64,000 bases of DNA from an uncultured Pseudomonadales bacterium. Its GTDB lineage: Bacteria > Patescibacteriota > Microgenomatia > UBA1400 > PJMF01. The notes beneath the pieces are model-generated. The model was not told the origin of the DNA. It ran no database searches and was given only the letters and a program-made list of their open reading frames with translations. This document shows, piece after piece, positions 1,392 through 21,616 of the stretch (within the stretch, counting starts at the first letter, position 1; the number at the start of each line of letters is the position of its first letter). The position numbers and the translations under genes were made by a program. The stretch lies in the NCBI GenBank assembly GCA_964412775.1, contig CAYPPX010000002.1, forward strand, positions 4,935-68,934, written 5' to 3'.

Positions 1392-1712
1392 ATGGCAGAA
1401 GCTCCCAAGCATTTACTCACTGAGTTAACTGATGAAATTGTGGCCAATCCTCAGCTTGTTGGCATAGAAGGTGAGATCAATGTGAATGAAGAAAGAGAGC
1501 CTAAAGAAGGTGATATTGATGGCGATGCTTTAGATACAATTGAAGTAAGTGATGGTTTGGCTCCAGCTGACAAAGACAGAATCGTGAAGATTATTAATTT
1601 GCTTGCAGATAAGAAAGCAAAGACTGGCCGAAACATGTTTTTTGACATCATGGCGATAATAATAGAAATGCAAGCAGAAAAAAGAACAGCTGCTGACCAA
1701 GTCGAAACCTAA
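1392..1712 (+). CDS. hypothetical acidic protein (106 aa)
   Basis: ORF 12 nt downstream of previous gene; very acidic; no family recognised. Confidence 0.4.
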   Translation: MAEAPKHLLTELTDEIVANPQLVGIEGEINVNEEREPKEGDIDGDALDTIEVSDGLAPADKDRIVKIINLLADKKAKTGRNMFFDIMAIIIEMQAEKRTAADQVET

Positions 1713-3145
1713 TCAGTTTGGACTGCCTTTTTGAACTGTTCACCACGATCTTGATAGTCTTTGAACAGGCCAAAACTAGCGCTAGCTGGACTGAGTAGAA
1801 TCACTCCTTGGCTTTCACCACTAAGCATAAAATATTGAGCCATGATGTGTTGAGCCTTACCAACGGCTTCTGGCATTGTTTTGGCAAATTCAATGACAAG
1901 GCTGTTATCAGTATCTAGATTATTTATTTCCACAGCTAACCTTTTGCCAGTCGGTTCAAATAAAACTAATCCAGCCACTTTTTTTTCTAGTATTTTTTTG
2001 GCTAATTCAGAGAAATCTTGGTGGCGTTCATAACCACCAGCTATTAAAACAACTGGTTCGGAGAAACTATCTAAAGCTCTCATGGCCGCATCAGGCATAG
2101 TAGAGAGAGAATCATCATAATAACGAATGCCTTTTTTTTGATAAAAAAACTCCAATCGATGGGGTAGAGCTTTAAAGTTTTGTAAGGCATTGCCAATCTG
2201 TTCTGCTGATAGATTAAACAGCGTTCCTACCACTACAGCAGGCATGACGTTTAATAGATTATGCTCGCCTTTGAGCGGCAGTTTCTCTATTTCTAAAATC
2301 AGTTCAGTTCTTTGTTGATTATCCTTGCGTAAAATCTGCTTATTTCTGACGAAAACAACGGCATCTGGTCCTTCTTGCAGTGAAAAACGTAGGTGTTGAC
2401 CAGCACTAAATTGGGTAATCTTGGTAGCACCAGTCATTTGCGGATTAAAAATAACAAAATCATTTTCAGTTTGATACTTACAAATAGGGATTTTGGCTTG
2501 TTGGTAACTGGCAGTATCTGGATAGTAATCGAGATGTTCGCTAGTGACATCTTGAACCACTGCAAGATGAGGACTGATGGTCATGGTTTCTAGCTGGTGG
2601 CTAGATAGTTCACAAACCACCAAAGAATCAGCATTAATTCTTTCTAAAATTGTCAAAGATGGTTGGCCAATATTACCCACTAAATGACTATCTAAGCCAT
2701 TCGTTTGCAAAACATGATGAATTATTGCTGAGGTGGTGCTTTTACCTTTGGTGCCAGTTACACCAATCGTTATTCCTGGACAGAGGCCAAAAAACAGCTG
2801 AGTGTTAGAAGTGAGTTGAGAACCGTTTTTTTTGGCTTGATCGATTGCTGGGATAGTTTGAGGAATGCCAGGGCTTTTAAAGATTAGCTGATAATTTTTT
2901 AGGTTAGTTAAATGATTGTTACCAAAGTAGTACTCAAGATGAGGATCATTTTTTAGTAGTTGTTGTTGATCTTCAGCAAATTTTTCTAGTGGTTGTTTGT
3001 CTGCCACGGCTAGTTTTTTATTGGGAAACTTGGTTCTCAAAAAATGGTAAGTTGACCAACCTTCTCGTCCCATTCCTAGAATCAGGATAGAGTTTTTTTC
3101 TAAGTTAGCCAAAACTTGTTGTTGATCGATCATAGTTTCTTTCAA
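1709..3145 (-). CDS. murD: UDP-N-acetylmuramoyl-L-alanine--D-glutamate ligase
   Basis: N-terminal Rossmann-like ILILGMGREG; Mur ligase P-loop GVTGTKGKSTT; overall Mur ligase architecture, 478 aa. Confidence 0.8.
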   Translation of the reverse strand: MKETMIDQQQVLANLEKNSILILGMGREGWSTYHFLRTKFPNKKLAVADKQPLEKFAEDQQQLLKNDPHLEYYFGNNHLTNLKNYQLIFKSPGIPQTIPAIDQAKKNGSQLTSNTQLFFGLCPGITIGVTGTKGKSTTSAIIHHVLQTNGLDSHLVGNIGQPSLTILERINADSLVVCELSSHQLETMTISPHLAVVQDVTSEHLDYYPDTASYQQAKIPICKYQTENDFVIFNPQMTGATKITQFSAGQHLRFSLQEGPDAVVFVRNKQILRKDNQQRTELILEIEKLPLKGEHNLLNVMPAVVVGTLFNLSAEQIGNALQNFKALPHRLEFFYQKKGIRYYDDSLSTMPDAAMRALDSFSEPVVLIAGGYERHQDFSELAKKILEKKVAGLVLFEPTGKRLAVEINNLDTDNSLVIEFAKTMPEAVGKAQHIMAQYFMLSGESQGVILLSPASASFGLFKDYQDRGEQFKKAVQTD

Positions 3146-4569
3146 AAATAGCTATTTTTAGCTTGACAAATTTGTTGAGCTTCTTGTTGTAGCAACTCGA
3201 CCAAGCTGTGATCCAAGTGATGCTGCTTATTCCAAAAACATAGTAGCATCTTAGTAGTTTGTTCTAGGTTGGGGACTTGAGAAAGAATTTCTTGATTAAT
3301 TTTTTCTAAAACCACTGGTAGTGGTTTATTTGGATGGTTTTTTTGCCATTTTTTAATGCTTAAGTAAAAAGCTGCTTGAGTTTCTTCATGAGTGCCAACA
3401 CACTCAAATGGTTTATTAGCATCAAGGCCCATTAATTCTTGAGCTGTTTGGTTGAGATTAGGTTTGGTAAAAAGGTTTTCAGAAAAAATTTCTGTAATTA
3501 GTTTTTGTTCGTCAATAAATGGGTAGAGGACAGCAAAAACAAATAAACATTTAGGACATTCTCCACACCACTGGTTTAGTTGTTGTCCTCTGTTACAGCT
3601 GCGAAAAATCGACTGAAATTGTTCATTTTTGCTAAATAGAGCTGCTATTTGTAGTTCGGTAAGAGGTCTGAGAAACGACAAATATTCAGGGGCTGATCCG
3701 AGATATTTTTTTACATAAGTTCTGAATTTATTTTCGAAGGCAAATGATTTAGAGTATTGGTGATTAACCATTATTCCCAGGTAAGGCACGTTACCTTCAT
3801 TAGCCGAGAATTCATTAGCTAATAAAATATTTTTATGACCACTCAGTAAAGCAACTAAGCTACTCTCAAAAGCCAATCTAGCGCTAAAAGGGGTATGGCC
3901 ATTTAAGTATCCTTGTTTGTTGAGTTCCAAGAGTTCTGGAGCAAAAGTTCTTTTTATTTCAATAATTTTAACTTGAGTTTCACTGGCTATTTTATGGGCA
4001 GCCGGTGATTGAGGATAGCTGAGTAGTATTTCGTAGGGAAGCTTATATTTGCTAAGTAAATTTATGACTAAAGCAGAATCTTTTCCGCCACCTACTGGGA
4101 CAAGAGCTTTATTTTTTGCTTGAAAAGAAAAGCTGGGTAGTTTTTGGGGAGTAAGAGTGTTTTGATTAGTAAATTTAACGAAGTTTGGTTGAGTGAAATC
4201 AATGTTATTGGTGTAAAAGTATTCACCCATGCCATCAAGCAGTAATCCTTGCCACCAAGAGAGTTGCTCTGGAGAAAGTGGCAGTGGCTGAATAACTATT
4301 TCTGGTGAGGCTGCTACTTTCCAATAGCTGAAGAGCTCAATCATCCCCAGATTAAAAACCCAGTGGCTAATGATTTCTTGAGGTATATTGGCAAAGGTTT
4401 GTTTATCTAGGTTGGTGATGGTGATTTGGGGTTGAAAATTAATGGCTGGTTCCAACAAAAAATCAAAAGAAATAGTCAATGTCTGGTTACTAAATTGCCA
4501 GTCAAAGCTTTGGTAGATGAAGCGGGGGTGTTGTTTTCTTAATGATTCGAGAGTTTTCTCGGTTGGCAT
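3142..4569 (-). CDS. PP-loop (N-type ATP pyrophosphatase) superfamily protein with C-terminal Cys cluster; function unknown
   Basis: Internal VPVGGGKDSAL resembles the SGGxDS PP-loop. C-terminal C...CGECPKC resembles QueC/amidotransferase-like zinc-binding motifs. Start overlaps murD stop (ATGA), suggesting translational coupling. Confidence 0.6.
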   Translation of the reverse strand: MPTEKTLESLRKQHPRFIYQSFDWQFSNQTLTISFDFLLEPAINFQPQITITNLDKQTFANIPQEIISHWVFNLGMIELFSYWKVAASPEIVIQPLPLSPEQLSWWQGLLLDGMGEYFYTNNIDFTQPNFVKFTNQNTLTPQKLPSFSFQAKNKALVPVGGGKDSALVINLLSKYKLPYEILLSYPQSPAAHKIASETQVKIIEIKRTFAPELLELNKQGYLNGHTPFSARLAFESSLVALLSGHKNILLANEFSANEGNVPYLGIMVNHQYSKSFAFENKFRTYVKKYLGSAPEYLSFLRPLTELQIAALFSKNEQFQSIFRSCNRGQQLNQWCGECPKCLFVFAVLYPFIDEQKLITEIFSENLFTKPNLNQTAQELMGLDANKPFECVGTHEETQAAFYLSIKKWQKNHPNKPLPVVLEKINQEILSQVPNLEQTTKMLLCFWNKQHHLDHSLVELLQQEAQQICQAKNSYF

Positions 4570-5881: not shown

Positions 5882-6160
5882 CTAATCTTCGTCAGGAGTT
5901 TCTGCTGGGTTAACACCTAGTAACCATAATACTGCTTCTTTTTTATAGCGACGGTCACCACGGGAGTTAATTCTGATTGCTGGAAGTTTGCCACGCTTAC
6001 CCCAACGTTTGATGGTAAGAGGGGAAACTCTAAGTAGGTCTGCCACTTCACGAACTGTAAGTAAGTCTGGCAGGTTATTAATATCTAGCTTGGCGGCATC
6101 GTTGGCTCGGCCGGTTTTTTTGTCGTCCATCTCAGAGACGGTGGCAGATGCATCAGTCAT
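5882..6160 (-). CDS. excisionase-family helix-turn-helix DNA-binding protein
   Basis: LTVREVADLLRVSPLTIKRW...GKLPAIRI..GDRRYKKEAV matches the Xis/MerR-like HTH_17 pattern. Local GC (~47%) is higher than neighbours. Confidence 0.65.
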   Translation of the reverse strand: MTDASATVSEMDDKKTGRANDAAKLDINNLPDLLTVREVADLLRVSPLTIKRWGKRGKLPAIRINSRGDRRYKKEAVLWLLGVNPAETPDED

Positions 6161-6350
6161 GCAGATCCTTTCCTAAGTGTTAATACTGCATCCGCGGTGA
6201 ATGGTGCAATATAGATCAGAATTTTTCAAATCTATATACCAAGGTAACAGAATAAACTGAACTGGGTCAATAGTGAATTTCAAACTAGGTCAAATATGGG
6301 CAGTTTTGCTTTTTAAAAAATATAAATAATGTTATGATCACCTTTGAATT

Positions 6351-7805
6351 ATGACTTTAAAGAATAAAAAAGTTTTAATCGTTAATTCTGGAGGGACAAA
6401 TAAAACTCATACTTTTGCTAAGGCAAATGAGTTGGGGCTTGATCTATATCTTTTATTAACGGAAAAAGACTTATTAGAAAAAAAATGGGTTTTAAACTAT
6501 ATTCCCAAAAAGAAAATAATTCTGTCTAAGGATACTAATTTTGAGACTTTTATTGAGGATGTATTAGTTTTTCAAGAAAAAAATGGGATAAAGTTTGATG
6601 GAGTGACTACTTTTGTGGAAGAATACACTTTTCAAGCAAGTTGTGTTGCTTCAGCTCTAGGTAAAACTTTTATTTCTCCATCAGCAGTGATTAATAGCTC
6701 TTTTTACAAATATGTAATGAGAGAGAGATGCCGAGAAAAAGGAATTAAAACTCCTTACTACCATTTTTTTAAGACTCTCAAAGAACTCAAGTTGCTTTGC
6801 AAAAAGCTCAAATTTCCTGTGGTGATAAAGCCTCATGATGGCAATCATAGTTTGGCTGTTATAAAGATTAGTAATCCTCAAAATTCCAGAGAAGTAACCA
6901 AAGCATTTAATTTGGCAAAAAATGAAATGAACCAGTATTTTTCTTATAGATTTGATGGTGATAATCTATTTATTTTAGAAGAATTTATTGAAGGTTCTTT
7001 AATTTCTGTTGATGGGGTGATTCAAAATCAAAAGCCCAAAATAGTTGGTCTTGCTGAGTATTTTTTATCTCCAGATCCATTATTAGTTCCTGAGTTTAAC
7101 TTTATTCCCCCTGTAAGCGAAAATATTTTAAAGAATAAACAATCAATTTACTCAGAAACAAAAAAAATTTTGAAAGCACTAGGATTTGATAATTGTGGTT
7201 TTCATTGCGAGATGAAAGTTAACGGAAATCAAGTTATTTTAATAGAGATTGGGGCAAGAATTGCTGGAGGGCCCATTGCTCAAGGTTATTATCGAGCTTA
7301 CGGGCTGGATTTGGCCAAAGCCTCATATCAACTAAGCTTAGGTGATCAGGTTGAGTTTAAAAAAACAAAAAATAACTGTGTAATGCAAAAAGCTGTTTTT
7401 ACTTATGAAACCAGTCTTTTTAAAAAAGATTTTATCGATAAATTAAAAAAATATGATTACATCAAAGACTTGGTTAAGTTCTATAAAGAAGGAGACCTAA
7501 TTCGTATCTATGGCAATCAAGCTGAGGCTGTTTTTTACTATTGTGTTGAGGCTTCTAACCCAAAAAAACTGAATGAATATCTTAGTGAAATTGCAGACCT
7601 CAAGCTTTATGATTTTGAACCGGTTAAAATTGAGCAAAAGAAAAGTAAAGTACTTGAAGACCTAAAGAAAAAGAAAAATAAGCTAAAAAAAACTAAAATC
7701 GGTAAAGTGTTAAAGTTTGTTTCTGATGTTTGTAAAATTCCGTTTAATTACGAGTTAAGAGCTAATAAAGTAAAGAATATTTCTTGGTTTGATTTCTTTG
7801 AGTAA
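6351..7805 (+). CDS. ATP-grasp enzyme, L-amino-acid ligase (BacD/YwfE)-like
   Basis: N-terminal KKVLIVNSGG, central FPVVIKPHDGNHSLAV, FILEEFIEGS and GFDNCGFHCEMK...IEIGARIAGG align block-by-block with YwfE-type L-amino acid ligases. The gene is strikingly AT-rich (~30% GC). Confidence 0.6.
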   Translation: MTLKNKKVLIVNSGGTNKTHTFAKANELGLDLYLLLTEKDLLEKKWVLNYIPKKKIILSKDTNFETFIEDVLVFQEKNGIKFDGVTTFVEEYTFQASCVASALGKTFISPSAVINSSFYKYVMRERCREKGIKTPYYHFFKTLKELKLLCKKLKFPVVIKPHDGNHSLAVIKISNPQNSREVTKAFNLAKNEMNQYFSYRFDGDNLFILEEFIEGSLISVDGVIQNQKPKIVGLAEYFLSPDPLLVPEFNFIPPVSENILKNKQSIYSETKKILKALGFDNCGFHCEMKVNGNQVILIEIGARIAGGPIAQGYYRAYGLDLAKASYQLSLGDQVEFKKTKNNCVMQKAVFTYETSLFKKDFIDKLKKYDYIKDLVKFYKEGDLIRIYGNQAEAVFYYCVEASNPKKLNEYLSEIADLKLYDFEPVKIEQKKSKVLEDLKKKKNKLKKTKIGKVLKFVSDVCKIPFNYELRANKVKNISWFDFFE

Positions 7806-8156: not shown

Positions 8157-8170
8157 GTTTTCGTTGTACC

Positions 8171-8201
8171 AAAAACCCCGCCTTGCAGCGGGGTTTTTTT
8201 T
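8171..8201. terminator. bidirectional intrinsic terminator
   Basis: AAAAA-CCCCGC-cttgca-GCGGGG-TTTTTTTT, a perfect hairpin flanked by an A-run and a T-run, between the convergent hypothetical gene and rplL. Confidence 0.65.
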
Positions 8202-8225
8202 GTTTCTATTGTTAATTGAAACAAA

Positions 8226-8630
8226 TTATTTCATTTCAACGACACAACCAGCTTCTTCTAAGGTTTTCTTAGCAGCTTCGGCGTCTTCTTTCTTAGCACC
8301 TTCCAAAACGGTTTTTGGAGCAGATTCGACGAAGGTCTTAGCTTCACCCAAACCTAATTCTGGTTTCAAGGTACGAACGGCTTTAATAGCCCCGATTTTG
8401 TTAGATCCGGCGTCTTTCAAAATAACGTCGAATTCATCTTTAACTTCGGCAGCGGCGGCTTCACCACCAGCGGCTGGCATAGCACCCATCATGACTGGGG
8501 CGGCAGCACTAACGCCGAATTTATCTTCTAAAGCTTTAACGAGTTCAGAAACTTCCATGAGGGAAAGTTCTGAAACAGCGCTAACGATTTTCTCCACTTT
8601 AGCGGAGAGTTGTTTTGTGTCTTCTGACAT
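8226..8630 (-). CDS. rplL: 50S ribosomal protein L7/L12
   Basis: Full-length match to L7/L12: N-terminal dimerisation helix, Ala/Gly/Glu-rich hinge, and C-terminal [21 protein letters not shown]...VEMK. Confidence 0.95.
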
Positions 8631-11414: not shown

Positions 11415-12719
11415 ATGCGAGAAATCTTTAGAAAAATTACTGACAGCTCAGCTAATTGGTTACAACAGCGAATTGAAAATAGCATCCAAGGTCAAGGTAA
11501 AGATAACAAAAATTTGTTATCTAGAATTGCTTTGGACAAACTCAAGCGTCGTAGCCAGTCAGAACAAGTTGTCCCTCAGGAATTTGAGGCCAAGTTTAAC
11601 CAATGGCGAACCGTAATTGAGCAAGATCGCTATGAACTTTCAAATCCTGACGAAACAGGTGAAATTAGAAGATTCTACTCCATGGCCAATGGTATTTATG
11701 GTGAGCCGTTAATTACTGCAGAACCTGATTTAGCTTTTGCTTTGCCACCAGCAGTTAGTTTTGTTAACGCCAAAGGTAAAGCAATCGATCAACCTTCAAT
11801 GAAAATTTCTGGCATTATTTGTCAAAGTAAAGCTGAAGTAGGTGATGGGGAAGAAGCCCAAGTAGTGGTGGATCACCGGGTAAGTTTAAGTAACAAAGGC
11901 ACTAGAACAATTGAACAGACTGAAGATGGCCTAATAATTAATGGTGAGCGTTGGTATTTAAAAACCCTTTTTTCCAAAGATGGTAATAGAATCAAAAACT
12001 ATGATGCTTACTACGTCAAAACCAAACCAGAAAGTGTGCAATTTTTAGAGCTACAAGATATTAATTTTGTGGGTGTTAACCAGTCAGCCGAGCATTCAGA
12101 ACAAACCGAGACAGAGCAGTGGCGAGAGCTTTTAACTGATAAAACTGACCTCAAAAGACTAGCCAAACTTACTTACAAAAAACTTAAAAGAAAACTTGAG
12201 TCTCTTGATCCAGAAAATAAACCAGTAGCAGAATACCAGTTCAAACAATGGACTTTTAGGTTTTGGGCAGATAAGTATGAAATTGTAAATTTAGAGCCAG
12301 ATGGTACTGAGCGTTTTTACAAAGTGATCAAAGGTAAATATGGTGAGCCAATTATTGTGGCAGAACCTGATCGGGCTTATGCTTCTCCAGAAAATGCTGA
12401 GTATGCTAATGCTAAAGGTGAGACTATTCCAAGACCTGAGGGTGATATTTCTGGGATTATTTGTCAGAATGAAAATGGTTCTGTAGCTCATCGGTTTAGT
12501 TTATCTAATCCCAAAACTCCCAAGTTTAGAGTCACTAAAGATGGTTTGATCCTATTTTTAAAAGATGAAGCTGGCAAAGTGACTAAAGAGCGTTGGTATC
12601 TTAATACCATGTTTGCCAAAGACAAAAATCGGGTCAAAAACCATGATGGTTACTACAGTCGTCAAAAACCAGCCAAGATCAAGATGGTTGAGCTCCAAGA
12701 CTTAGAGTTTGTTGATTAA
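11415..12719 (+). CDS. hypothetical protein built from two tandem copies of an uncharacterised ~170-aa domain
   Basis: Residues ~55-260 and ~270-434 are clearly homologous (YGEPLITAEPD.../YGEPIIVAEPD..., ISGIICQ, ERWYL.T.F.KD.NR.KN.D.YY, ELQD..FV). Confidence 0.55.
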   Translation: MREIFRKITDSSANWLQQRIENSIQGQGKDNKNLLSRIALDKLKRRSQSEQVVPQEFEAKFNQWRTVIEQDRYELSNPDETGEIRRFYSMANGIYGEPLITAEPDLAFALPPAVSFVNAKGKAIDQPSMKISGIICQSKAEVGDGEEAQVVVDHRVSLSNKGTRTIEQTEDGLIINGERWYLKTLFSKDGNRIKNYDAYYVKTKPESVQFLELQDINFVGVNQSAEHSEQTETEQWRELLTDKTDLKRLAKLTYKKLKRKLESLDPENKPVAEYQFKQWTFRFWADKYEIVNLEPDGTERFYKVIKGKYGEPIIVAEPDRAYASPENAEYANAKGETIPRPEGDISGIICQNENGSVAHRFSLSNPKTPKFRVTKDGLILFLKDEAGKVTKERWYLNTMFAKDKNRVKNHDGYYSRQKPAKIKMVELQDLEFVD

Positions 12720-12743
12720 CTTTTTACTGGTAGTTCTAGTTTT

Positions 12744-12771
12744 TTGCTTTTTTGCTGATCAGGTTTATAAT
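12744..12771 (+). promoter_or_regulatory. candidate sigma70-type promoter of the thrS leader transcript
   Basis: TTGCTT (12744-12749), 16-nt spacer, TATAAT (12766-12771). Predicted TSS within ~2 nt of the leader ATG, so possibly leaderless. Confidence 0.35.
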
Positions 12772-12779
12772 AACTGCTA

Positions 12780-12830
12780 ATGATAATTGATTCTTTTATT
12801 ACCATCACCACTACTACAACCCTTAGTTAG
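12780..12830 (+). CDS. Thr-rich leader peptide (MIIDSFITITTTTTLS) of a thrS attenuator
   Basis: ATG...TAG read codon by codon: ACC ATC ACC ACT ACT ACA ACC gives 6 Thr in 7 codons. The stop overlaps an antiterminator arm. Confidence 0.45.
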   Translation: MIIDSFITITTTTTLS

Positions 12831-12865
12831 GGTGTGTTGTGTGTGGTAATTAAAAGACATGACAC

Positions 12866-12887
12866 CCCTTGCAAGAGGGGTTTTTTA
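12866..12887 (+). terminator. intrinsic terminator/attenuator upstream of thrS
   Basis: CCCCTT-GCAA-GAGGGG hairpin with a GNRA loop followed by TTTTTT. The 5' arm (ACACCCC at 12863-12869) can alternatively pair with AGGGTGT at 12829-12835. Confidence 0.55.
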
Positions 12888-12954
12888 GTATCAAAAAACA
12901 GTTAAAAGCAAGTACAATAACATAGTTGCACCAACAACTTGAAGAAAAGGAAAT

Positions 12955-14769
12955 ATGGACAAAAAATCAGCTGATCAATTATGGAAACTTAGACATACGG
13001 CCGAGCATGTGCTGACTTTGGCGATGCATCAACTTTATGGCAAAGATAAAGTGATTATGGCGATGGGTCCGGCAACTGATGAGGGTTTTTATTTTGATTT
13101 TGATGTGACTGATGATTTTAAAGTGAGTGAAGCAGATTTTCCCAAAATTGAAAAACAAATGAAGAAGATTATTCAACTTAATTTTTTGATGAAAAGAGTT
13201 GAAGTGTCCGTAGAAGTTGCTCGTAAACTTTTTGCTGACAACCCATACAAACAAGAGTGGTTAGATGAAATTGAGGGTGAAAAACAGCCAGTAACTGTTT
13301 ATCTCACTGGCACCAAAGATCAAGTGGAAGCTGATGAGGCAAGTCTTAAAGCAGGCCAAACTGAAGTGAAATCTGCATTTGTTGATTTATGTAGTGGCCC
13401 TCATGCTGACAAAGTTGGCGAAATTAAAGCCTTCAAGTTACTCAGTGTAGCTGGGGCTTATTGGCGAGGCGATGAGAAAAATAAAATGTTAACTCGTATC
13501 TATGGTACGGCTTTTGAGTCACCAGTTGAACTAGATGAATACATTAACAAACTAGAAGAAGCCAAGAAAAGAGACCATCGCAAACTTGGTAAGACTTTAG
13601 ATTTATTTACTTTTTCAGACTTGGTGGGTCCTGGTTTACCATTATGGACGCCAAAAGGTACCCAAATGAGAGTGTTATTAGATGACTTTGTTTGGTCACT
13701 AAGAAAAGCTCGTGGTTATTCAAAGGTAGAAATTCCTCATATTACTAAAAAAGATCTTTATCAAACCAGTGGTCACTGGGATAAATTTGGTGATGAGCTA
13801 TTCAGAATGGTGACTCGTGAAGGTCATGAGTTTGTGATGAAACCAATGAACTGTCCTCACCACACCCAAATCTTTGCTCGTAAGCAAATGAGTTACCGTG
13901 AAATGCCTCAGCGTTACGCTAATACCACGATGGTGTATCGTGATGAACAAACTGGCGAATTGAACGGCTTATCTCGTGTCAGAGCTATTACTCAAGATGA
14001 TTCTCACGTTTTTTGTCGACCCAACCAAGTGAAAGATGAAGCCAATGCCGTTTGGGATATTGTTGAGAAGTTTTATGGTGCTTTTGGTTTTAAACTTCAG
14101 GTGAGATTATCGCTCCATGATCCAGCTGCTCCAGAAAAATATTTGGGTGGTAAAGATCGTTGGGCCACTGCAGAACAAACTTTAAGAGAGCTAGCTCGTT
14201 TTAGAGGAGCAGAGGCAGTCGAAGCTGCTGGTGAGGCTGCTTTTTATGGTCCAAAGATTGATTTTATGGCCTTGGATTCTTTGGGTCGTGAGTGGCAAGT
14301 GGCGACGATTCAGTTAGACTTTAATATGCCAGAAAGATTTGATCTTGCTTGTATCAATGAAACTGGTGAAAAAGAGCGAGTGGTGATGCTCCATGTGGCG
14401 ATCATGGGTTCAATCGAAAGATTTTTATCAATTTTGATTGAACACTATGGTGGGGCATTTCCATTTTGGTTGTCTCCAGTCCAGGTGAAAATTTTACCAA
14501 TTGCCGATCGTCACTTAGATTTTGTGTCAGAAATAAAAACCCATCTAGAAAAGTTAGATGTTCGAGTTGAAGTAGATGATCGTAGTGATCGCTTACCAGC
14601 TAAAATTAGAACTGCTCAGCTAGAAAAAGTACCACACATGTTAGTGATTGGTGACCAAGAGCTAGAAGAGAAAAAAGTTAATGTTAGAACTAGAGATGGT
14701 CAGCAACAAAGTTATTCTATTGAAGAATATTTACTTTTAATCAAGGAGTTGGTTGGTAAAAAGTCTTAG
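12955..14769 (+). CDS. thrS: threonyl-tRNA synthetase (short form lacking N-terminal TGS/editing extension)
   Basis: 604 aa; class II aaRS motifs and ThrRS-specific blocks (HRDLGK-like RDHRKLGK, FxMxxMNCPHH, anticodon-binding C-terminus). Confidence 0.9.
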   Translation: MDKKSADQLWKLRHTAEHVLTLAMHQLYGKDKVIMAMGPATDEGFYFDFDVTDDFKVSEADFPKIEKQMKKIIQLNFLMKRVEVSVEVARKLFADNPYKQEWLDEIEGEKQPVTVYLTGTKDQVEADEASLKAGQTEVKSAFVDLCSGPHADKVGEIKAFKLLSVAGAYWRGDEKNKMLTRIYGTAFESPVELDEYINKLEEAKKRDHRKLGKTLDLFTFSDLVGPGLPLWTPKGTQMRVLLDDFVWSLRKARGYSKVEIPHITKKDLYQTSGHWDKFGDELFRMVTREGHEFVMKPMNCPHHTQIFARKQMSYREMPQRYANTTMVYRDEQTGELNGLSRVRAITQDDSHVFCRPNQVKDEANAVWDIVEKFYGAFGFKLQVRLSLHDPAAPEKYLGGKDRWATAEQTLRELARFRGAEAVEAAGEAAFYGPKIDFMALDSLGREWQVATIQLDFNMPERFDLACINETGEKERVVMLHVAIMGSIERFLSILIEHYGGAFPFWLSPVQVKILPIADRHLDFVSEIKTHLEKLDVRVEVDDRSDRLPAKIRTAQLEKVPHMLVIGDQELEEKKVNVRTRDGQQQSYSIEEYLLLIKELVGKKS

Positions 14770-14833: not shown

Positions 14834-16024
14834 TTATCTAAACTCTTTTTTGACTTCTTCTTCATTAACTTCTTCTTTTTTGACAGCCAAACTACCTAAA
14901 ACTAATTTATCCAAAGTGAAAGGCGAGAGCAGCGAAATGACCTCTAAGGTGAAAATTGATAATTCAAAGGCACTTGGAATTTGGTTAGTAATAAAGAATG
15001 CTCCAAGACCAACTAAAGTAGCAGTAAATAATGATTCTTTAAACATATCTTTTTGCGTTCTTTCGATAATTGAAGTTTTGATGCCGAGTTTTTCTGCCAG
15101 GTGACCTTTTCTGACAATCTTCGGAATACTGTGCCACAACATAGTAATAAAAGTGGCGATTGCTGTTACGGTATTAAAAGTTCTATTAGGAATGGTCACA
15201 TCACCACTAAAAATATTAATCTGCCAGCCAACCGGGAAGTTTCTAACCAGCAACCAAGCAATCAACATGAAAAATAACAAGTAACCAGTAGTATATTTAT
15301 TAATTTTTTCAGTAACTTCAGTGACTTTTTTATCTTCTTCAGTTAGCTCAGTTTCTTCAACCACTGGTTTATTTTTACTAGCTCTTTTGAAAATAAGAAT
15401 AATCAACTGAATGATGACCAAAGCAATCCAAGTGGGAAGGAGTACTTTCCAACCCAGATCAATACTTTTGGTAATGTAAGGGTAGGGGATTTTGAACCAA
15501 ACGTCTTGAATGGGGTAACTAGGGTATTCGACCCAAGAGTAAAGATGTTTTGGATCAAGAGGAATATTATAAAAGTCTGTTAAAAATAACCGACCTAGTG
15601 AAACATAAGAAACGATCTGCATGACAAAATCAACAGCATAGAATAAAAAAGTGGGATTACCCTGACGGAACTTCTTTTTTAAAACAAAGTTTTGTTCCGA
15701 TTCTTTTTGAATTTTTTCGACTGTGTGTTGAAACTCTTGAATGTTATTTGATTTGGCAATTCTAATTACTCTAAAGGGAATCATTAGTAGTGTTTGGAAA
15801 ACACCCAATAACATCACTGAGATCCACATGTGATTAACGTAAGAGTAGAAAAAGAACAAGAAACTGGCATAAAAAGTATGAAGTATTCCAGAGAAAAAAG
15901 CGTAAATTAAAAAAATAATTGCTAAAGCAGAGGCAATGGTGCCCAGTGATGGAATTTTAATAAAGTTACTGACCTTATTGTCTTGAGAAATTTGAAAATT
16001 ATTATTAGTTGCTAAATTATTCAT
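14834..16024 (-). CDS. polytopic membrane protein, possibly YidC/Oxa1-family insertase
   Basis: Multiple TM helices. Region HMWISVMLLGVFQTLLMIPFRV...QEFQHTVEKIQKESE...QIVSYVSLGRLF loosely follows the YidC core (TM2 + amphipathic helix + QMP-like segment). Long C-terminal tail. Confidence 0.4.
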   Translation of the reverse strand: MNNLATNNNFQISQDNKVSNFIKIPSLGTIASALAIIFLIYAFFSGILHTFYASFLFFFYSYVNHMWISVMLLGVFQTLLMIPFRVIRIAKSNNIQEFQHTVEKIQKESEQNFVLKKKFRQGNPTFLFYAVDFVMQIVSYVSLGRLFLTDFYNIPLDPKHLYSWVEYPSYPIQDVWFKIPYPYITKSIDLGWKVLLPTWIALVIIQLIILIFKRASKNKPVVEETELTEEDKKVTEVTEKINKYTTGYLLFFMLIAWLLVRNFPVGWQINIFSGDVTIPNRTFNTVTAIATFITMLWHSIPKIVRKGHLAEKLGIKTSIIERTQKDMFKESLFTATLVGLGAFFITNQIPSAFELSIFTLEVISLLSPFTLDKLVLGSLAVKKEEVNEEEVKKEFR

Positions 16025-16067
16025 ATGAAATTAATACCAGTCATTGTAACTTGAATTACCTGGTCTG

Positions 16068-16955
16068 TCACTTTGTAAGCGTCAAGAAAATCATGCCCAA
16101 AACAACTATAACTACACCAAATAGTTTTCTGGATTGAAGTTGGTCTTTGAAAATTATTCCAGATAAAAGTGTTAGAGCTGCAATTGAAGCAGCATTCATG
16201 GCGTTAACATAACCAACATTTGGAGTTAGTTGGTAGGCTAGTTGCATAAAGTAATTGAAACTAGCTCCAGTTAGACCAATCATTAACAGAGTCAAAAGTT
16301 GGGGTTGGCTTACTTTTAAAGAGATTCTTTTTTGCCAAATTTCTAAAAAAATAATAACTGAGACAATTAACATTGAGTAAATTAATCTAGCCAAAATTGA
16401 GACACCTAAATCAAGTAGGTATTTTGAGGTTAAAGCCAACATTCCCCAACAGAAAAAAGCTCCCAAACTAAACCAAAACCAACTATTTTTAGTTTCTTGG
16501 TTTGGAGCTTGAGTTTTTTCAACCATGATCAGGGCTGACCCAGTGACAATCAAAACAATAGCTAGGCTAGCCTGCCAAGATAGGGTAGAGTCAAACAAAA
16601 AAATAGCAGCTATAGTAGTAAAAACGACATAGCTTTTTGAGATTACCAAGCTAAAACCTGGATTTGAAGCTAATTCAAGACTTTTTAGTGAAAATTTGTT
16701 ACCCAAATAAGAAAAAAAGATTGACATGATTGTGATAACTAATAGCTGATATGGAGTAACACTTAAGGTGGAAAGTTGACTAGTTGAAAGACCTAAGTAA
16801 ATTATCACTGGAATAAAAAACATGGCTAGATTTTTAAGGGGGTTATTAATTTTTTGATTACCAGCCAATCTTACAAACAGGTAAGTAACTACTGATGAAA
16901 CAAACATTAAACTACTAGCAATTAACCAATTCATAATTAGTAACAATTCTAACAA
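16068..16955 (-). CDS. EamA/DMT-superfamily transporter
   Basis: 295 aa, ~10 predicted TM helices in two repeated halves. Confidence 0.5.
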   Translation of the reverse strand: MLELLLIMNWLIASSLMFVSSVVTYLFVRLAGNQKINNPLKNLAMFFIPVIIYLGLSTSQLSTLSVTPYQLLVITIMSIFFSYLGNKFSLKSLELASNPGFSLVISKSYVVFTTIAAIFLFDSTLSWQASLAIVLIVTGSALIMVEKTQAPNQETKNSWFWFSLGAFFCWGMLALTSKYLLDLGVSILARLIYSMLIVSVIIFLEIWQKRISLKVSQPQLLTLLMIGLTGASFNYFMQLAYQLTPNVGYVNAMNAASIAALTLLSGIIFKDQLQSRKLFGVVIVVLGMIFLTLTK

Positions 16956-16963
16956 ACAAATAT

Positions 16964-17491
16964 TTAAGTTTTATTTTGAAATATAAAGTAAGCTTTATTG
17001 TTTGTTTCACCAATTTTTTTAAAACCAAACTTTTGATACAGTCCGGCTGCCACTTGGTTTGAAAGGTGGGTGCTTAGCCAAATTTGCTTATTAGGTAAAA
17101 TCTCTGTCAAATTTTGGAAAGCTATTTTCATAAAAGGTAACGCCAAACCATGACTACGATATGGTTGGTAAATTCTAATACCAAAAGTCCAATCGCTGTT
17201 TGGATACTTATTTTTTAGGGTTGGTGGTAAATCTAGGTTTTCAAACCAAATGATGCCAGCCAAATTGGCTTGGTTTTTAATTGGGGCCAGGACAAAAAAA
17301 TATTTTTTAGCTTTTTTTAGCCACGCTAAGGCGCTTGCCAGAGAGGAAAAACGCTTTGAGTCAGATGTTTGATCAATAATCTGCTGGTCAGTATGAGCTG
17401 CCGCTATCATTTGCTTCAGAAATTCATCGGTTAGTTCAGTTGTTAGCTTGTATTCTTTATTGTTTTTATCAAAAATTATTTTTGCTGACAC
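16964..17491 (-). CDS. GNAT-family N-acetyltransferase
   Basis: YRSHGLALPFMKIAF...GFKKIG block resembles the acetyl-CoA binding motif of GNAT enzymes. Confidence 0.55.
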   Translation of the reverse strand: MSAKIIFDKNNKEYKLTTELTDEFLKQMIAAAHTDQQIIDQTSDSKRFSSLASALAWLKKAKKYFFVLAPIKNQANLAGIIWFENLDLPPTLKNKYPNSDWTFGIRIYQPYRSHGLALPFMKIAFQNLTEILPNKQIWLSTHLSNQVAAGLYQKFGFKKIGETNNKAYFIFQNKT

Positions 17492-17550
17492 GGTTTTTAT
17501 TGTACTTTAGTTTAGTTTTTTTGCTGAGAGAAGTTTATCTGGCAAACCAA

Positions 17551-17591
17551 GATTAAATAACAAAAAGCCACCAACTTTCGTTAGTGGCTTT
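17551..17591 (-). terminator. intrinsic terminator downstream of rplA
   Basis: AAAGCCAC-(12 nt loop)-GTGGCTTT hairpin followed on the minus strand by UUGUUAUUU. Confidence 0.45.
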
Positions 17592-17613
17592 CTAAATTAC
17601 TGTTTAGTTAAAG

Positions 17614-18309
17614 TTAAATAGTTTCTAAGTCAACTTTAATACCTGGACTCATTGAAGCAGATAAAGCTAATCTCAAGGCTTTACCTTGAAGAGGTTTCAT
17701 TAAAGCTTGAATGTTTTCGGCGATAGCCTTGCTATCCATCGAAACTTTACCAATGGTAACATGCATTAATGGAGCTTTTCTTTCGGTTTTAATTAACATC
17801 TTACCAGCAGAAAGTTCTTTAACAGCTCTTTCTGGGTTTGGCGTTAAAGTACCGTTTTTGGGATTTGGCATTAAGCCTTTTGGACCCAAAACACGAGCAA
17901 ATTTAGCTAATTTAGGCATGAAATCTGGTGAACTAACCAAGATATCGAAATCTAAGTTTCCAGCTTCAATTTCCTTTAGGACTGCTTCACTAGCAATTAC
18001 CACTTTTTTGGATTGACCAGTTTGGTGAGGGAGAGTAACTTCGGCAGAAATGCCTTCTTCTCTAACTACCAATTCAGCTGAAATGGTGCCGTCAAAAGTG
18101 GTGTAAGAAAGTTTTTTGACTAACTCAATTGCAGCCATTAAGTCATATTTTTTAGTTTTATCAACTTTTGACTTTACAGAAACATATTTTTTACTGTGAG
18201 TTCTAACCTTAATTTGTTTGGTTGCTTTTTCAGCCTGATCTTCTGGAGATTCGACAACCTTAACTTCGGTTTCTTGGCTAGACATATCTACATTTTTAGT
18301 GGTACCCAT
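17614..18309 (-). CDS. rplA: 50S ribosomal protein L1 (with ~35-aa N-terminal extension)
   Basis: L1 sequence from KKYDLMAAIELVKKL onward; follows rplK as in the conserved rplKA operon. Confidence 0.9.
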   Translation of the reverse strand: MGTTKNVDMSSQETEVKVVESPEDQAEKATKQIKVRTHSKKYVSVKSKVDKTKKYDLMAAIELVKKLSYTTFDGTISAELVVREEGISAEVTLPHQTGQSKKVVIASEAVLKEIEAGNLDFDILVSSPDFMPKLAKFARVLGPKGLMPNPKNGTLTPNPERAVKELSAGKMLIKTERKAPLMHVTIGKVSMDSKAIAENIQALMKPLQGKALRLALSASMSPGIKVDLETI

Positions 18310-18313
18310 ATGC

Positions 18314-18739
18314 TTATTCCTTTACCTGTACACCCATACTGCGAGCAGTTCCCTTAACACTGTTAACAGCACTCTCGAGGTTGTTAGTGTTGAGATCTGG
18401 AAGTTTTTCCTGAGCAATCTCTTTCACTTGATCCATAGTCAAAGTGCCGACAGAGCCTTTACTTGGGGTACTACTGCCTTGTTTAATATTTAAAGCTTTT
18501 TTAATCATGTCTGAAACTGGAGGAAGCTTCAAGACAAAAGTAAATGATTTATCTTGATAAACAGTGATCTCTGCTGGAATAACTTGACCTCTTTTATCCT
18601 TGGTAGCGTCATTATATTGCTTCAAGAAATCCATCATATTAATACCAGTTTGACCAAGAGCTGGACCAACTGGAGGAGCAGGAGTAGCAGCACCACCCTG
18701 CAAATTGAGTTTTAAGACTTGTTGTACTTTTTTTGCCAT
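18314..18739 (-). CDS. rplK: 50S ribosomal protein L11
   Basis: MAKKVQQVLKLNLQGGAATPAPPVGPALGQTGINMMDF is near-canonical L11. Confidence 0.95.
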   Translation of the reverse strand: MAKKVQQVLKLNLQGGAATPAPPVGPALGQTGINMMDFLKQYNDATKDKRGQVIPAEITVYQDKSFTFVLKLPPVSDMIKKALNIKQGSSTPSKGSVGTLTMDQVKEIAQEKLPDLNTNNLESAVNSVKGTARSMGVQVKE

Positions 18740-18784
18740 ATTTTATTTATTCCTTAAACAGACTCGCTATTTTAACACACCGGT

Positions 18785-19417
18785 CTAGACTTTCTGAACT
18801 TGTAAGAAATCCATTTCCACTGGGGTTTCACGACCAAAAATGTTGATTAAGACCTTAACTTGGCCTTTTTCTTCATCGATGGAATCGACTGTACCCAAGA
18901 ATTCAGCGAATGGACCATCAGTAATCTTGACGGCTTCACCTTCAACAAAGTCAGCTTTAAATTGAGGTTCGGCTTGATCCATGTATTTTTGAATAGCTTC
19001 TACTTCATGTCTTGGTAATGGAGTTGGTTTACTACTCATCCCTACAAAGCCTGTGACACCTTGAGTAGTTCTAACTGCTAACCAAGCATCGTCTGTCATT
19101 TCCATTTGGACCAACATATAGCCAGGGAAGATTTTTTCTCTGACAGTTTTGCGTTGGCCACGCTTAATTTGAATTTTTTCTTGACTTGGAATTAACACAG
19201 TTAAGATTTTGTCGGTCAAATGTAAAGTTTGAGCACGTTGTTTAAGTGCCTCAGCAACTTTTTTTTCATGACCTGAGTAAGCATGTACAACATACCAGCG
19301 AGCTTTCTTGTTTTCAGTATCAGAGATACGAACCAAGTTTGGAGATTCTACTTGAACCTCTTGTTCTTCTGGAGGGGTCATGTTTTTCTCATCGATTTGT
19401 TGTGTGTTATCTGTCAT
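18785..19417 (-). CDS. nusG: transcription termination/antitermination factor NusG
   Basis: NGN domain (ARWYVVHAYSGHEKKV) and C-terminal KOW (GEAVKITDGPFAEFLGTV); conserved position after secE. Confidence 0.9.
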   Translation of the reverse strand: MTDNTQQIDEKNMTPPEEQEVQVESPNLVRISDTENKKARWYVVHAYSGHEKKVAEALKQRAQTLHLTDKILTVLIPSQEKIQIKRGQRKTVREKIFPGYMLVQMEMTDDAWLAVRTTQGVTGFVGMSSKPTPLPRHEVEAIQKYMDQAEPQFKADFVEGEAVKITDGPFAEFLGTVDSIDEEKGQVKVLINIFGRETPVEMDFLQVQKV

Positions 19418-19423
19418 ATTTTT

Positions 19424-19606
19424 TTACCTTAATACAATGCCCATTAGCCGAGCAAAAATATAATCTAAACCACCTATATACAAGGCTGCAACCACTGTTA
19501 CCACCACGACTAACAAAGTTTTATTGTAAGTTTGCTCCTTGGTTGGCCAGGAAACCTTCTTGAGTTCTTGGGCAACTTCACGAAAATATTGGAGAAGTCG
19601 TTGCAT
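19424..19606 (-). CDS. secE: preprotein translocase subunit SecE
   Basis: 60 aa; FREVAQELKKVSWPTKEQTYNKTLLVVVVT matches the SecE C-terminal TM region; immediately upstream of nusG. Confidence 0.85.
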   Translation of the reverse strand: MQRLLQYFREVAQELKKVSWPTKEQTYNKTLLVVVVTVVAALYIGGLDYIFARLMGIVLR

Positions 19607-19629
19607 AGACAGAGTATTCTATCAGAAAA

Positions 19630-20046
19630 TTAGTTTTTTTTCAGAGGGAGTTTTGGAAGTGTCAATCTGAATTTTTTCTTTTCTTCTTTTTCCTCTTTTT
19701 CTTTCCACTTTAGATCCATTGATTGACCACCTTCTATTTTCCATCCATTCAAAGAAGTGTAACCAAAGTTAAAAATAGCTTGTGAGACTACGGTTGACAT
19801 TTTTCTTCCCAAAAAACCATGGAAAATAGGATTACTAGTTTGGCTTAAAACAATCGAAATAAAATCACCATCCTGTGGTTTTTCAATTTTGAGTATTATT
19901 TTTTTATTTGATCGTTCTATATTTATTTCAACCTCATTTCTAGCACTGATTATGGAAAAAGTAGTCAACTCAGGTTGAAATGGTTCTGGCAACTCTATTT
20001 CAATATTCTCTTTAAAGGTTTCTTGTTCATGGTTTGGTTCTTGCAC
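19630..20046 (-). CDS. hypothetical protein (138 aa)
   Basis: ORF upstream of secE on the same strand; lysine/glutamate-rich C-terminus; no family recognised. Confidence 0.4.
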   Translation of the reverse strand: MQEPNHEQETFKENIEIELPEPFQPELTTFSIISARNEVEINIERSNKKIILKIEKPQDGDFISIVLSQTSNPIFHGFLGRKMSTVVSQAIFNFGYTSLNGWKIEGGQSMDLKWKEKEEKEEKKKFRLTLPKLPLKKN

Positions 20047-21487: not shown

Positions 21488-21540
21488 ATACAAATCTATT
21501 CGAGTGTTTTTTGAGGTACAATATATCTCTCTAAACAGAT

Positions 21541-21616
21541 GCCTTTGTAGCTCAGGTGGCAGAGCGCAGTCTTGGTAAGACTGAGGTCTCGGGTTCGAAC
21601 CCCGACAAAGGCTCCT
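21541..21616 (+). tRNA. tRNA-Thr (anticodon GGT)
   Basis: Cloverleaf with acceptor GCCTTTG/CAAAGGC, anticodon loop TTGGTAA, T-arm GGGTTCGAACCCC. Confidence 0.9.

Follow-up and report, generated by a model that had tools for sequence, protein, structure and literature searches.

In a 64,000-nucleotide (nt) stretch of DNA recorded as an uncultured Pseudomonadales bacterium and placed by GTDB in the Patescibacteriota (assembly GCA_964412775.1, contig CAYPPX010000002.1, positions 4,935 to 68,934; hereafter the window), the threonyl-tRNA synthetase gene thrS is preceded by a short threonine-rich open reading frame (ORF) and an intrinsic terminator. We judge with good confidence that these form a ribosome-mediated leader-peptide transcription attenuator, which senses charged tRNA-Thr and controls read-through into thrS. 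The element most likely raises synthetase expression when charged tRNA-Thr is scarce. It lies entirely within the 235-nt gap between a 434-amino-acid (aa) unannotated gene, which ends at 12719, and the thrS start codon at 12955. The same design is found upstream of thrS in about 20 Patescibacteria loci, at ThrS identities of 50-92%. An attenuator of this kind had been proposed by an earlier interpretation made without database searches (the sequence-only reading), and that observation is confirmed as a whole apart from small points.

Anatomy of the leader and its simulated switch

The leader ORF reads as previously described (ATG ATA ATT GAT TCT TTT ATT ACC ATC ACC ACT ACT ACA ACC CTT AGT TAG) and contains six Thr codons, five of them consecutive. 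Such clustering of cognate codons upstream of the regulated gene is a criterion of the attenuator class. An in-frame TAA (12771-12773) closes the frame on its 5' side. The ORF follows closely on a promoter, P1, whose boxes and spacing had been correctly identified. Its description as near-consensus needs qualifying: the -35 box matches TTGACA at three of six positions, which is why a consensus promoter scan did not list P1. Nevertheless, six related loci (L122 and L162-L166) share a TTGC(T/A)T hexamer at this place, with 16-17 nt between it and the -10 box. In 17 of 19 loci the leader start codon is preceded, at a distance of 5-10 nt, by a -10 box with at least five of six matches, often TGn-extended; such a box precedes 2.7% of background ATGs. 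On the basis of this spacing, the leader is probably translated from a leaderless mRNA, as the sequence-only reading had suggested. A -10 box at the same distance from the start codon is present in 11 of 66 window genes, a figure which suggests that the genome produces many leaderless mRNAs.

As summarized in Table 1, the transcript can be divided into regions that form three mutually exclusive helices, with region 1 lying inside the ORF at the control codons. The free leader folds at -35.8 kcal/mol into a 27-base-pair (bp) hairpin followed by the terminator. In this 1:2 hairpin, which was absent from the sequence-only reading, the codons UCU UUU AUU ACC AUC ACC ACU ACU ACA ACC CU pair with the GU-rich region 2. 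The 2:3 antiterminator comprises 13 bp between 12829-12842 and 12857-12869, with U12833 bulged, and the 3:4 terminator has a 7-bp GC-rich stem with a GCAA loop. When each element is folded alone, the 1:2 helix has an energy of -24.2 kcal/mol, and the terminator and antiterminator, whose comparison had been recommended earlier, have energies of -10.3 and -17.7 kcal/mol. The antiterminator had been claimed as a 7-nt pairing of AGGGUGU (12829-12835) with ACACCCT (12863-12870). A pairing partner indeed exists, but the exact segment is ACACCCCU at 12862-12869, with four C; the coordinates were off by one, the 7-nt match is imperfect and the full helix is longer. Likewise, the terminator hairpin is as described, but ends 68 rather than 70 nt before thrS, between leader and structural gene as is usual for the class. 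An E. coli-type translational operator would have ThrRS-binding stem-loops resembling an anticodon arm at or across the thrS ribosome-binding site; the sequence from 12890 to 12960 folds into weak structure only.

Table 1. Features of the thrS leader region, in window coordinates.
Feature	Position	Strand	Remarks
P1 -35 box, TTGCTT	12744..12749	+	Read from sequence
P1 -10 box, TATAAT	12766..12771	+	16-nt spacer from -35 box; 8 nt to leader ATG
Leader ORF, MIIDSFITITTTTTLS and stop	12780..12830	+	16 codons; UAG stop at 12828-12830; no Shine-Dalgarno sequence; probably leaderless
Control codons Thr8, Ile9, Thr10-Thr14 (ACC AUC ACC ACU ACU ACA ACC)	12801..12821	+	Read from sequence
Region 1, 5' strand of 1:2 hairpin, within leader ORF	12792..12823	+	Minimum-free-energy folds
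Region 2, GU-rich strand from stop codon on, AGGGUGUGUUGUGUGUGGUAAUUAAAAGA	12829..12857	+	Alternative partners: region 1, or region 3 (12829-12842 only)
Region 3, antiterminator 3' strand, ACAUGACACCCCU	12857..12869	+	Overlaps terminator 5' arm
Intrinsic terminator (3:4), ACCCCUU-GCAA-GAGGGGU + U6	12864..12886	+	Arms 12864-12870 and 12875-12881; also found by terminator scan
P2, probable second -10 box between terminator and thrS, CAAGTACAAT	12909..12918	+	Conservation; -10 hexamer 12913-12918
thrS Shine-Dalgarno-like AAGGA, purine-rich	12947..12951	+	Read from sequence
thrS, threonyl-tRNA synthetase, 604 aa	12955..14769	+	Pfam tRNA_SAD, tRNA-synt_2b, HGTP_anticodon

We infer from this anatomy a mechanism that would require transcription start sites next to the leader, leader translation, coupling of transcription to translation and a response to threonine. 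Transcription would start from P1 at or next to the AUG, and ribosomes would translate the 16-codon leader from a leaderless mRNA. With ample Thr-tRNA, the ribosome would reach the UAG at 12828 and either cover the start of region 2 (AGGGUGU...) or allow 1:2 to re-pair behind it; the 3:4 terminator would then form and transcription would end at the U-tract (12886). When Thr-tRNA is scarce, the ribosome would stall on Thr codons 8-12 and hold region 1, leaving region 2 free. The 2:3 pairing would sequester the 5' arm of the terminator, and RNA polymerase would continue into thrS.

This switch was simulated by folding the RNA while the stretch between -15 and +12 nt of the A-site codon, an assumed ribosome footprint, was kept unpaired. 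In the window, the predicted terminator probability is 0.98 both for the free RNA and for a ribosome with its A site on the stop codon. It falls to 0.00-0.05 with the A site on Thr8, 10, 11 or 12, and is 0.44 on Thr13 and 0.92 on Thr14. The UAG overlaps the first bases of region 2, such that a terminating ribosome would mask that region, and the same geometry is seen in relatives. All 16 loci folded in this way have a terminator, as do L083 and L143. Of the 16, 15 switch: a ribosome at the stop gives a terminator probability of at least 0.76, and at least one Thr stall lowers it to 0.2 or less. L083 and L143 switch too. In this model, both predictions of the sequence-only reading are borne out, namely that stalling on Thr codons would free the antiterminator and that a ribosome at the stop would permit termination. 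The terminator usually re-forms when region 2 is dinucleotide-shuffled, with per-locus p values of 0.055, 0.010, 0.175, 0.445, 0.005, 0.265 and 0.025, and with 0/200 (taken as 0.005) in two further loci. A Fisher combination, made by hand, of all per-locus values gives p of approximately 1e-6.

Conservation upstream of thrS in Patescibacteria

Loci containing thrS were drawn from species-representative genomes, metagenomes and closer relatives found via a protein database, in which the nearest homologues of the window ThrS are named Candidatus Pacebacteria, a result that places the genome in the Patescibacteria. Leaders made up of a Thr-run ORF (14-18 codons) and a terminator lie upstream of thrS in L162 (ThrS identity 90%; leader MIVSSFVTIITTTTLG), L163 (88%; MIVSFFVTIITTTTLG), L122 (85%; MKSLIVITTNTTTL), L164 (83%; MKLISFVTTTTTTIPL), L165 (81%; MKLRYFVTSTTTTVLC), L166 (79%; MKLMCSITTTTTIPS), L167 (75%; M(M)SVYISVTTTTVTTR), L081, which is the same as L169 (73%; MLIRLSLAATTTTR), and L170 (70%; MLFLFNSTTTTATTR). 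A Thr-run ORF and terminator are also found in the more distant L087, L001, L002, L020, L061, L093 and L083. Two members of the clade, L082 and L168 (72% each), are without the leader ORF. The peptide is conserved only in its Thr run, its frame and the position of its stop, one to three codons past the run, while other residues vary freely. The Thr run is always in frame with the start codon, its codons are exchanged synonymously (ACC, ACU, ACA) yet remain Thr, and the stop codon is always located in the apical loop, adjoining region 2. The sequence-only reading had asked for such an ORF in relatives, and it is present there beside differing upstream genes.

This association with thrS exceeds chance. 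ORFs of up to 45 aa with at least five Thr in seven residues number seven in 34 kb upstream of thrS, compared with three in 1.04 Mb of background (Poisson P of approximately 2e-11). An unbiased scan was also run over both strands of the window and all 170 loci, approximately 1 Mb, for a -10 box 5-10 nt before a start codon, an ORF of 8-35 aa containing a run of one amino acid, of whatever kind, and a terminator within 110 nt. It returned 20 matches, of which 16 were Thr leaders upstream of thrS. The genes upstream of the element are unrelated between loci, being on the opposite strand in L087, L002 and L061 and a tRNA-Val gene in L020. Because the upstream genes differ and are in some cases divergent or a tRNA, the terminator is part of the thrS-linked element rather than of the gene preceding it.

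The alternative pairing changes jointly between loci. Each post-stop segment finds a better partner in the terminator 5' arm of its own locus than in the arms of 12 other distinct loci (P=3.5e-4), and the two segments change together (GGGUGU/ACACCC, GGAGG/CCUCC, GCGGGG/CCCCGC, CUCGGG/CCCGAG). A covariance model built from the seven closest sequences retrieves distant loci, including L001 (45 bits), L061 (39), L087 (38), L170 (37), L081 (36) and L020 (29). In the 16-row alignment made with this model, the 1:2 and 3:4 helices are 84% paired, compared with 40-57% for slid registers, and 23 of their 33 pairs are changed on both sides, compared with 13.0 +/- 2.2 in shuffles (0/500 reach the observed value). 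Within the terminator, five of seven pairs show both-side changes across loci, and region 2 pairing is kept through compensatory changes in the model-based alignment.

Several loci depart from the common form. In L020, the Thr leader (174-218) begins 6 nt past a tRNA-Val(GAC) gene (93-167), which takes the place of the -10 box, and the 5' end of this leader may be made by tRNA processing; the tRNA was considered as a possible tRNA-Thr and this was rejected. Variant Thr leaders occur in L051 (897-960; ...TTSTTTTP), L059 (2845-2910; ...TSTLTTTP) and L125 (1325-1390; ...NQRTTTTP), each sequence ending at the stop codon. In these three, the last codons and the stop make a short hairpin, ACCCC-NUAA-GGGGU, and there is no clear U-tract terminator before thrS; they may represent a different mode of control or a degenerate element. 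In L003 (~2940-2970), L084 (~1350-1382) and L085 (~1370-1405), a long membrane-protein gene with a Thr-rich tail lies directly before thrS. The tails end in ...EATTTTTTQ, ...TGTTTVGE and ...PTTSTTVGE, respectively, with a hairpin across the stop codon in L084 and L085. A Thr-containing ORF in L044 was dismissed, as it has no run and no terminator. L001, L002, L003, L020, L061 and others are titled 'uncultured Pseudomonadales' or 'uncultured Gammaproteobacteria' (Third Party Annotation metagenome-assembled genomes), and carry Patescibacteria-type leaders and a ThrS 50-64% identical to Pacebacteria proteins; the record taxonomy of these genomes looks unreliable.

A probable second promoter and alternative explanations

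Several observations weigh against attenuation or restrict its reach. Chief among them is P2, the main limit on the regulatory claim. The CAAGTACAAT box is conserved in the window, L122, L081, L082, L161-L163 and L170. L082 and L168, which lack the leader ORF, still carry the P2 box, L168 in the variant form TGAGTACAAT. Sixteen of 22 loci have TA[CT]AAT within the interval 10-45 nt upstream of the thrS start codon, compared with 2.3% of background (P of approximately 5e-22). Since P2 is conserved even where there is no leader ORF, thrS can probably be expressed without read-through. Among its refuting conditions, the sequence-only reading had named a promoter for thrS itself within 12890-12950, and this is probably true in part. 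On these sequence grounds, thrS probably has its own basal promoter and the attenuator is probably an added Thr-responsive component that modulates part of thrS transcription: P2 (12913-12918) would probably give basal transcription, to which the attenuator would add an inducible share.

Further reservations concern the RNA evidence. The footprint used in the stalling simulation is assumed, and L087 switches poorly in this simple stall model. The G-rich composition of region 2 is itself sufficient for antiterminator-like pairing in a share of shuffles that ranges, according to locus, from 0.5 to 48%. The strong covariation of 1:2 and 3:4 comes from an alignment fitted to the same structure under test. 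For the 2:3 antiterminator, column-wise covariation in MAFFT alignments is no better than in shuffles. In the model alignment its both-side-changed pairs are not significant, and 79% of its cells are paired in the window register compared with 74.8% in shuffles (8/500), which is marginal. The case for 2:3 therefore rests on the comparison of cognate with non-cognate arms and on masked folding. Plain MAFFT alignments are uninformative here, as the close sequences differ too little and the distant ones are wrongly placed: covariation is not detectable in them, RNAalifold finds seven pairs only and pair counts are no better than shuffles.

The P2 motif itself recurs within the window. (A/G)GTACAAT is found before thrS, before a GNAT acetyltransferase gene (17499-17507, minus strand; 7 nt before its GTG) and before the tRNA-Thr(GGU)-Tyr-Thr(UGU) cluster (21514-21522, plus strand; 18 nt before the first tRNA). 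It looks like the generic -10 box of the lineage. We considered CAAGTACAAT as a Thr-specific operator and judged this less likely, given that the motif also precedes the GNAT gene.

It is improbable, in our view, that P1, leader and terminator constitute a stand-alone small gene, specifying a trans-acting short RNA or a hydrophobic Thr-rich peptide, with read-through not the main output. P2 would make control in cis dispensable for basal expression, the free RNA is a very stable hairpin plus terminator resembling a small RNA, and attenuator RNAs acting in trans are described in PMC6614838; the rnTrpL attenuator RNA of Sinorhizobium is one example of this mode of action. Against this, conservation of the peptide is confined to the Thr run, frame and stop position, and a small RNA would have no need of an antiterminator pairing that is conserved and co-varies. 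The element is always on the thrS strand and upstream of thrS, and in L143 it directly precedes thrC-thrS, with no room for another promoter.

We give still less credence to an untranslated switch, in which the choice between terminator and antiterminator would be made by something other than a ribosome: anticodons of uncharged tRNA-Thr binding the run of ACN triplets, as in a T-box, or ThrRS binding them, as at the E. coli thrS operator. Sensing of tRNA on thrS does exist in the phylum, as T-box-like leaders below threshold precede thrS elsewhere. However, the window has no T-box match at E<=10, nor do 11 leader-bearing loci at gathering score. Without translation, it would be unexplained why the Thr triplets are in frame with a start codon 5-10 nt past a -10 box and why a stop codon sits in the hairpin loop one to three codons after them. 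The Thr codons also vary synonymously (ACC, ACU and ACA) while Thr is kept.

Finally, it is very improbable that the hairpin does no more than terminate the upstream gene, with thrS transcribed solely from P2 and the Thr-rich ORF a functionless chance frame: P2-like boxes are common and also occur in relatives without a leader, and the window has no other terminator after the upstream gene (end 12719), but ORF and terminator stay beside thrS while upstream genes differ or diverge (the sequence-only reading had named this explanation as a possible refutation), the Thr-ORF enrichment is strong, a conserved promoter specific to the element adjoins the ORF, and the alternative pairing co-varies. 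A leader-peptide attenuator supplementing a probable basal promoter remains the preferred explanation.

Comparison with known leaders and wider occurrence

The window element lies outside all Rfam families yet would work like Thr_leader, as a new family of known mechanism. An Rfam search of the region at E<=10 found no known family. At gathering score, the whole window and 11 leader-bearing relatives yielded nothing but tRNAs; 20 related loci were searched overall. Thr_leader (RF00506) scored 13.7 bits (E=7.2) and Phe_leader (RF01859) 22 bits (E=0.28), each against a gathering score of 55, and the resemblance to the latter is in architecture only. The T-box family (RF00230; gathering score 93 bits), marked by a stem I with specifier loop and by the T-box sequence of its antiterminator, had no match in 12600-13100 even at E<=10, and a T-box in the window was accordingly rejected. 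Other weak matches were set aside: those to Thr_leader and Leu_leader at L097 3187-3296 are the thrS terminator, and a covariance-model match at window 8169-8234 (minus strand) is a hairpin and terminator after rplL with no ORF.

A close parallel in design is thrL of E. coli (RF00506). Both have a run of Thr codons (with Ile) in a short ORF and a 1:2/2:3/3:4 arrangement with an intrinsic terminator, and the window element, like thrL, would sense charged tRNA-Thr through a stalled ribosome. Relative L143, in which the element precedes threonine synthase and then thrS, comes closer still. However, the two are not homologous by Rfam score, and thrL controls a biosynthetic operon whereas the target in the window is a synthetase gene. 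The window leader also has no Shine-Dalgarno sequence, is apparently leaderless, belongs to a Patescibacteria host and is followed by a promoter-like box after the terminator. The pheST operon of E. coli, with its leader pheM, shares leader-peptide attenuation of an aminoacyl-tRNA synthetase operon by control codons cognate to the enzyme. It differs in amino acid and phylum, and has no sequence relation to the window element. The pheM leader is not known to be leaderless.

The sequence-only reading held that thrS is known to be controlled only by T-boxes or a translational operator, which is incomplete given that leader-peptide attenuators have been described before synthetase genes, weakly so for S. 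lividans thrS. The pheST attenuator is an established case, and those of Streptomyces trpS and leuS are predictions (PMC1262725). In S. lividans, leaderless leader peptides have been mapped by RNA sequencing at alaL-alaS, thrL-thrS, trpL2-trpS and leuL2-leuS (PMC8079986). These resemble the window leader, itself probably leaderless, in being leaderless ORFs with cognate codons upstream of synthetase genes, and a thrL upstream of thrS has been proposed among them. This thrL (MKRVRPFLETTPGFVPAR) has two Thr codons only and no clear intrinsic terminator (PMC8079986), whereas the element described here has 4-6 clustered Thr codons, a canonical terminator and an explicit antiterminator in about 20 loci. 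The Streptomyces leaders also belong to another phylum with another GC content; that of the window is ~37%. A His leader peptide attenuator has been predicted for hisS paralogues in Bacillus (PMC2965389). This is likewise a leader-peptide attenuator in place of a T-box on a gene of a synthetase family, and an instance of sensing systems switching, though amino acid, gene and phylum are different.

The T-box of Firmicutes thrS acts on the same gene, responds to the signal proposed for the window element (tRNA-Thr charging) and has the same terminator/antiterminator output. It differs in that it senses tRNA through direct RNA-tRNA binding without translation. A T-box regular expression matched nine other loci, of which none reached gathering score and five were sub-threshold. 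These five are divergent T-box-like leaders upstream of thrS, at L038 1-177 (48.6 bits), L049 2771-2927 (36 bits) and, with 29-31 bits, L018 2647-2822, L005 2608-2797 and L036 2670-2919. T-box and leader-peptide sensors seem to alternate on thrS within Patescibacteria. This offers a clear case of one gene with apparently interchangeable sensors in one phylum.

Candidate elements of similar design, retrieved with the covariance model, occur before other genes. On L143, a Patescibacteria metagenome contig, a Thr leader (MSKLLLVNCTTTTPT and stop) with its terminator (97-194) lies directly before threonine synthase (195-1487; Pfam Thr_synth_N, PALP), followed by thrS (1495-3243), in a thrL-thrC-thrS arrangement. 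L072, a Levyibacteriota metagenome-assembled genome, has at 5978-6106 an ORF (MSSSEQKNWFYFYFTSQSGRLSRGL and stop, containing WFYFYF), a long hairpin and a terminator, followed by aroB, encoding 3-dehydroquinate synthase (6193-7275). This is a candidate aromatic-amino-acid leader, and the simple stall model gives a partial switch only. In L076, a Leu-rich ORF (MKSLILNNLLLSR and stop, containing LILNNLLL) with hairpin and terminator (5-103) precedes an ilvE-like class IV (branched-chain type) aminotransferase gene (455-1384); no antiterminator is predicted there in the simple model. In the window, nothing convincing was found for leaders of other amino acids, and cysS (56837), its only other synthetase gene, has a 68-nt upstream gap with no leader.

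It is very likely that classical attenuation, which needs coupled transcription and translation, operates in Patescibacteria, and the element also points to translation of the sensor ORF from a leaderless mRNA. Classical attenuation may be widespread in the phylum. A broader proposal, to which we give somewhat less than even weight, is that leaderless leader-peptide attenuators are general amino-acid sensors of Patescibacteria (thrS and thrC-thrS, with sister elements at aroB in L072 and the ilvE-like gene in L076), forming a new family absent from Rfam that alternates with divergent T-boxes. If this is true, the thrS element would report host- or environment-derived threonine through tRNA charging in organisms mostly unable to make amino acids.

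As most Patescibacteria are uncultivated and known from metagenomes only, their cis-regulation is almost unexplored. A search of a library of papers on Patescibacteria or the candidate phyla radiation (CPR) with leader peptides, T-boxes or leaderless mRNAs found no paper on such an element. The thrS leader provides a well-defined, conserved and testable regulatory RNA for this group, and the approximately 20 sequences are a starting set for an Rfam-style family. Given that the mechanism is a textbook one and synthetase leader peptides were already known, the result extends rather than overturns existing knowledge.

Some further features of the window were recorded. The 604-aa ThrRS has no TGS domain in Pfam, consisting of tRNA_SAD, catalytic core and anticodon-binding domain only; E. 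coli ThrRS, by contrast, has a TGS domain. Genes for tRNA-Thr(GGU) and tRNA-Thr(UGU) are present at 21541 and 21759. Of the 16 bins of 4 kb in the window, all but 16001-20000 (-0.011) have a positive GC skew (+0.06 to +0.21), and a report on a Microgenomates genome mentions a strand composition disparity (PMC7143001).

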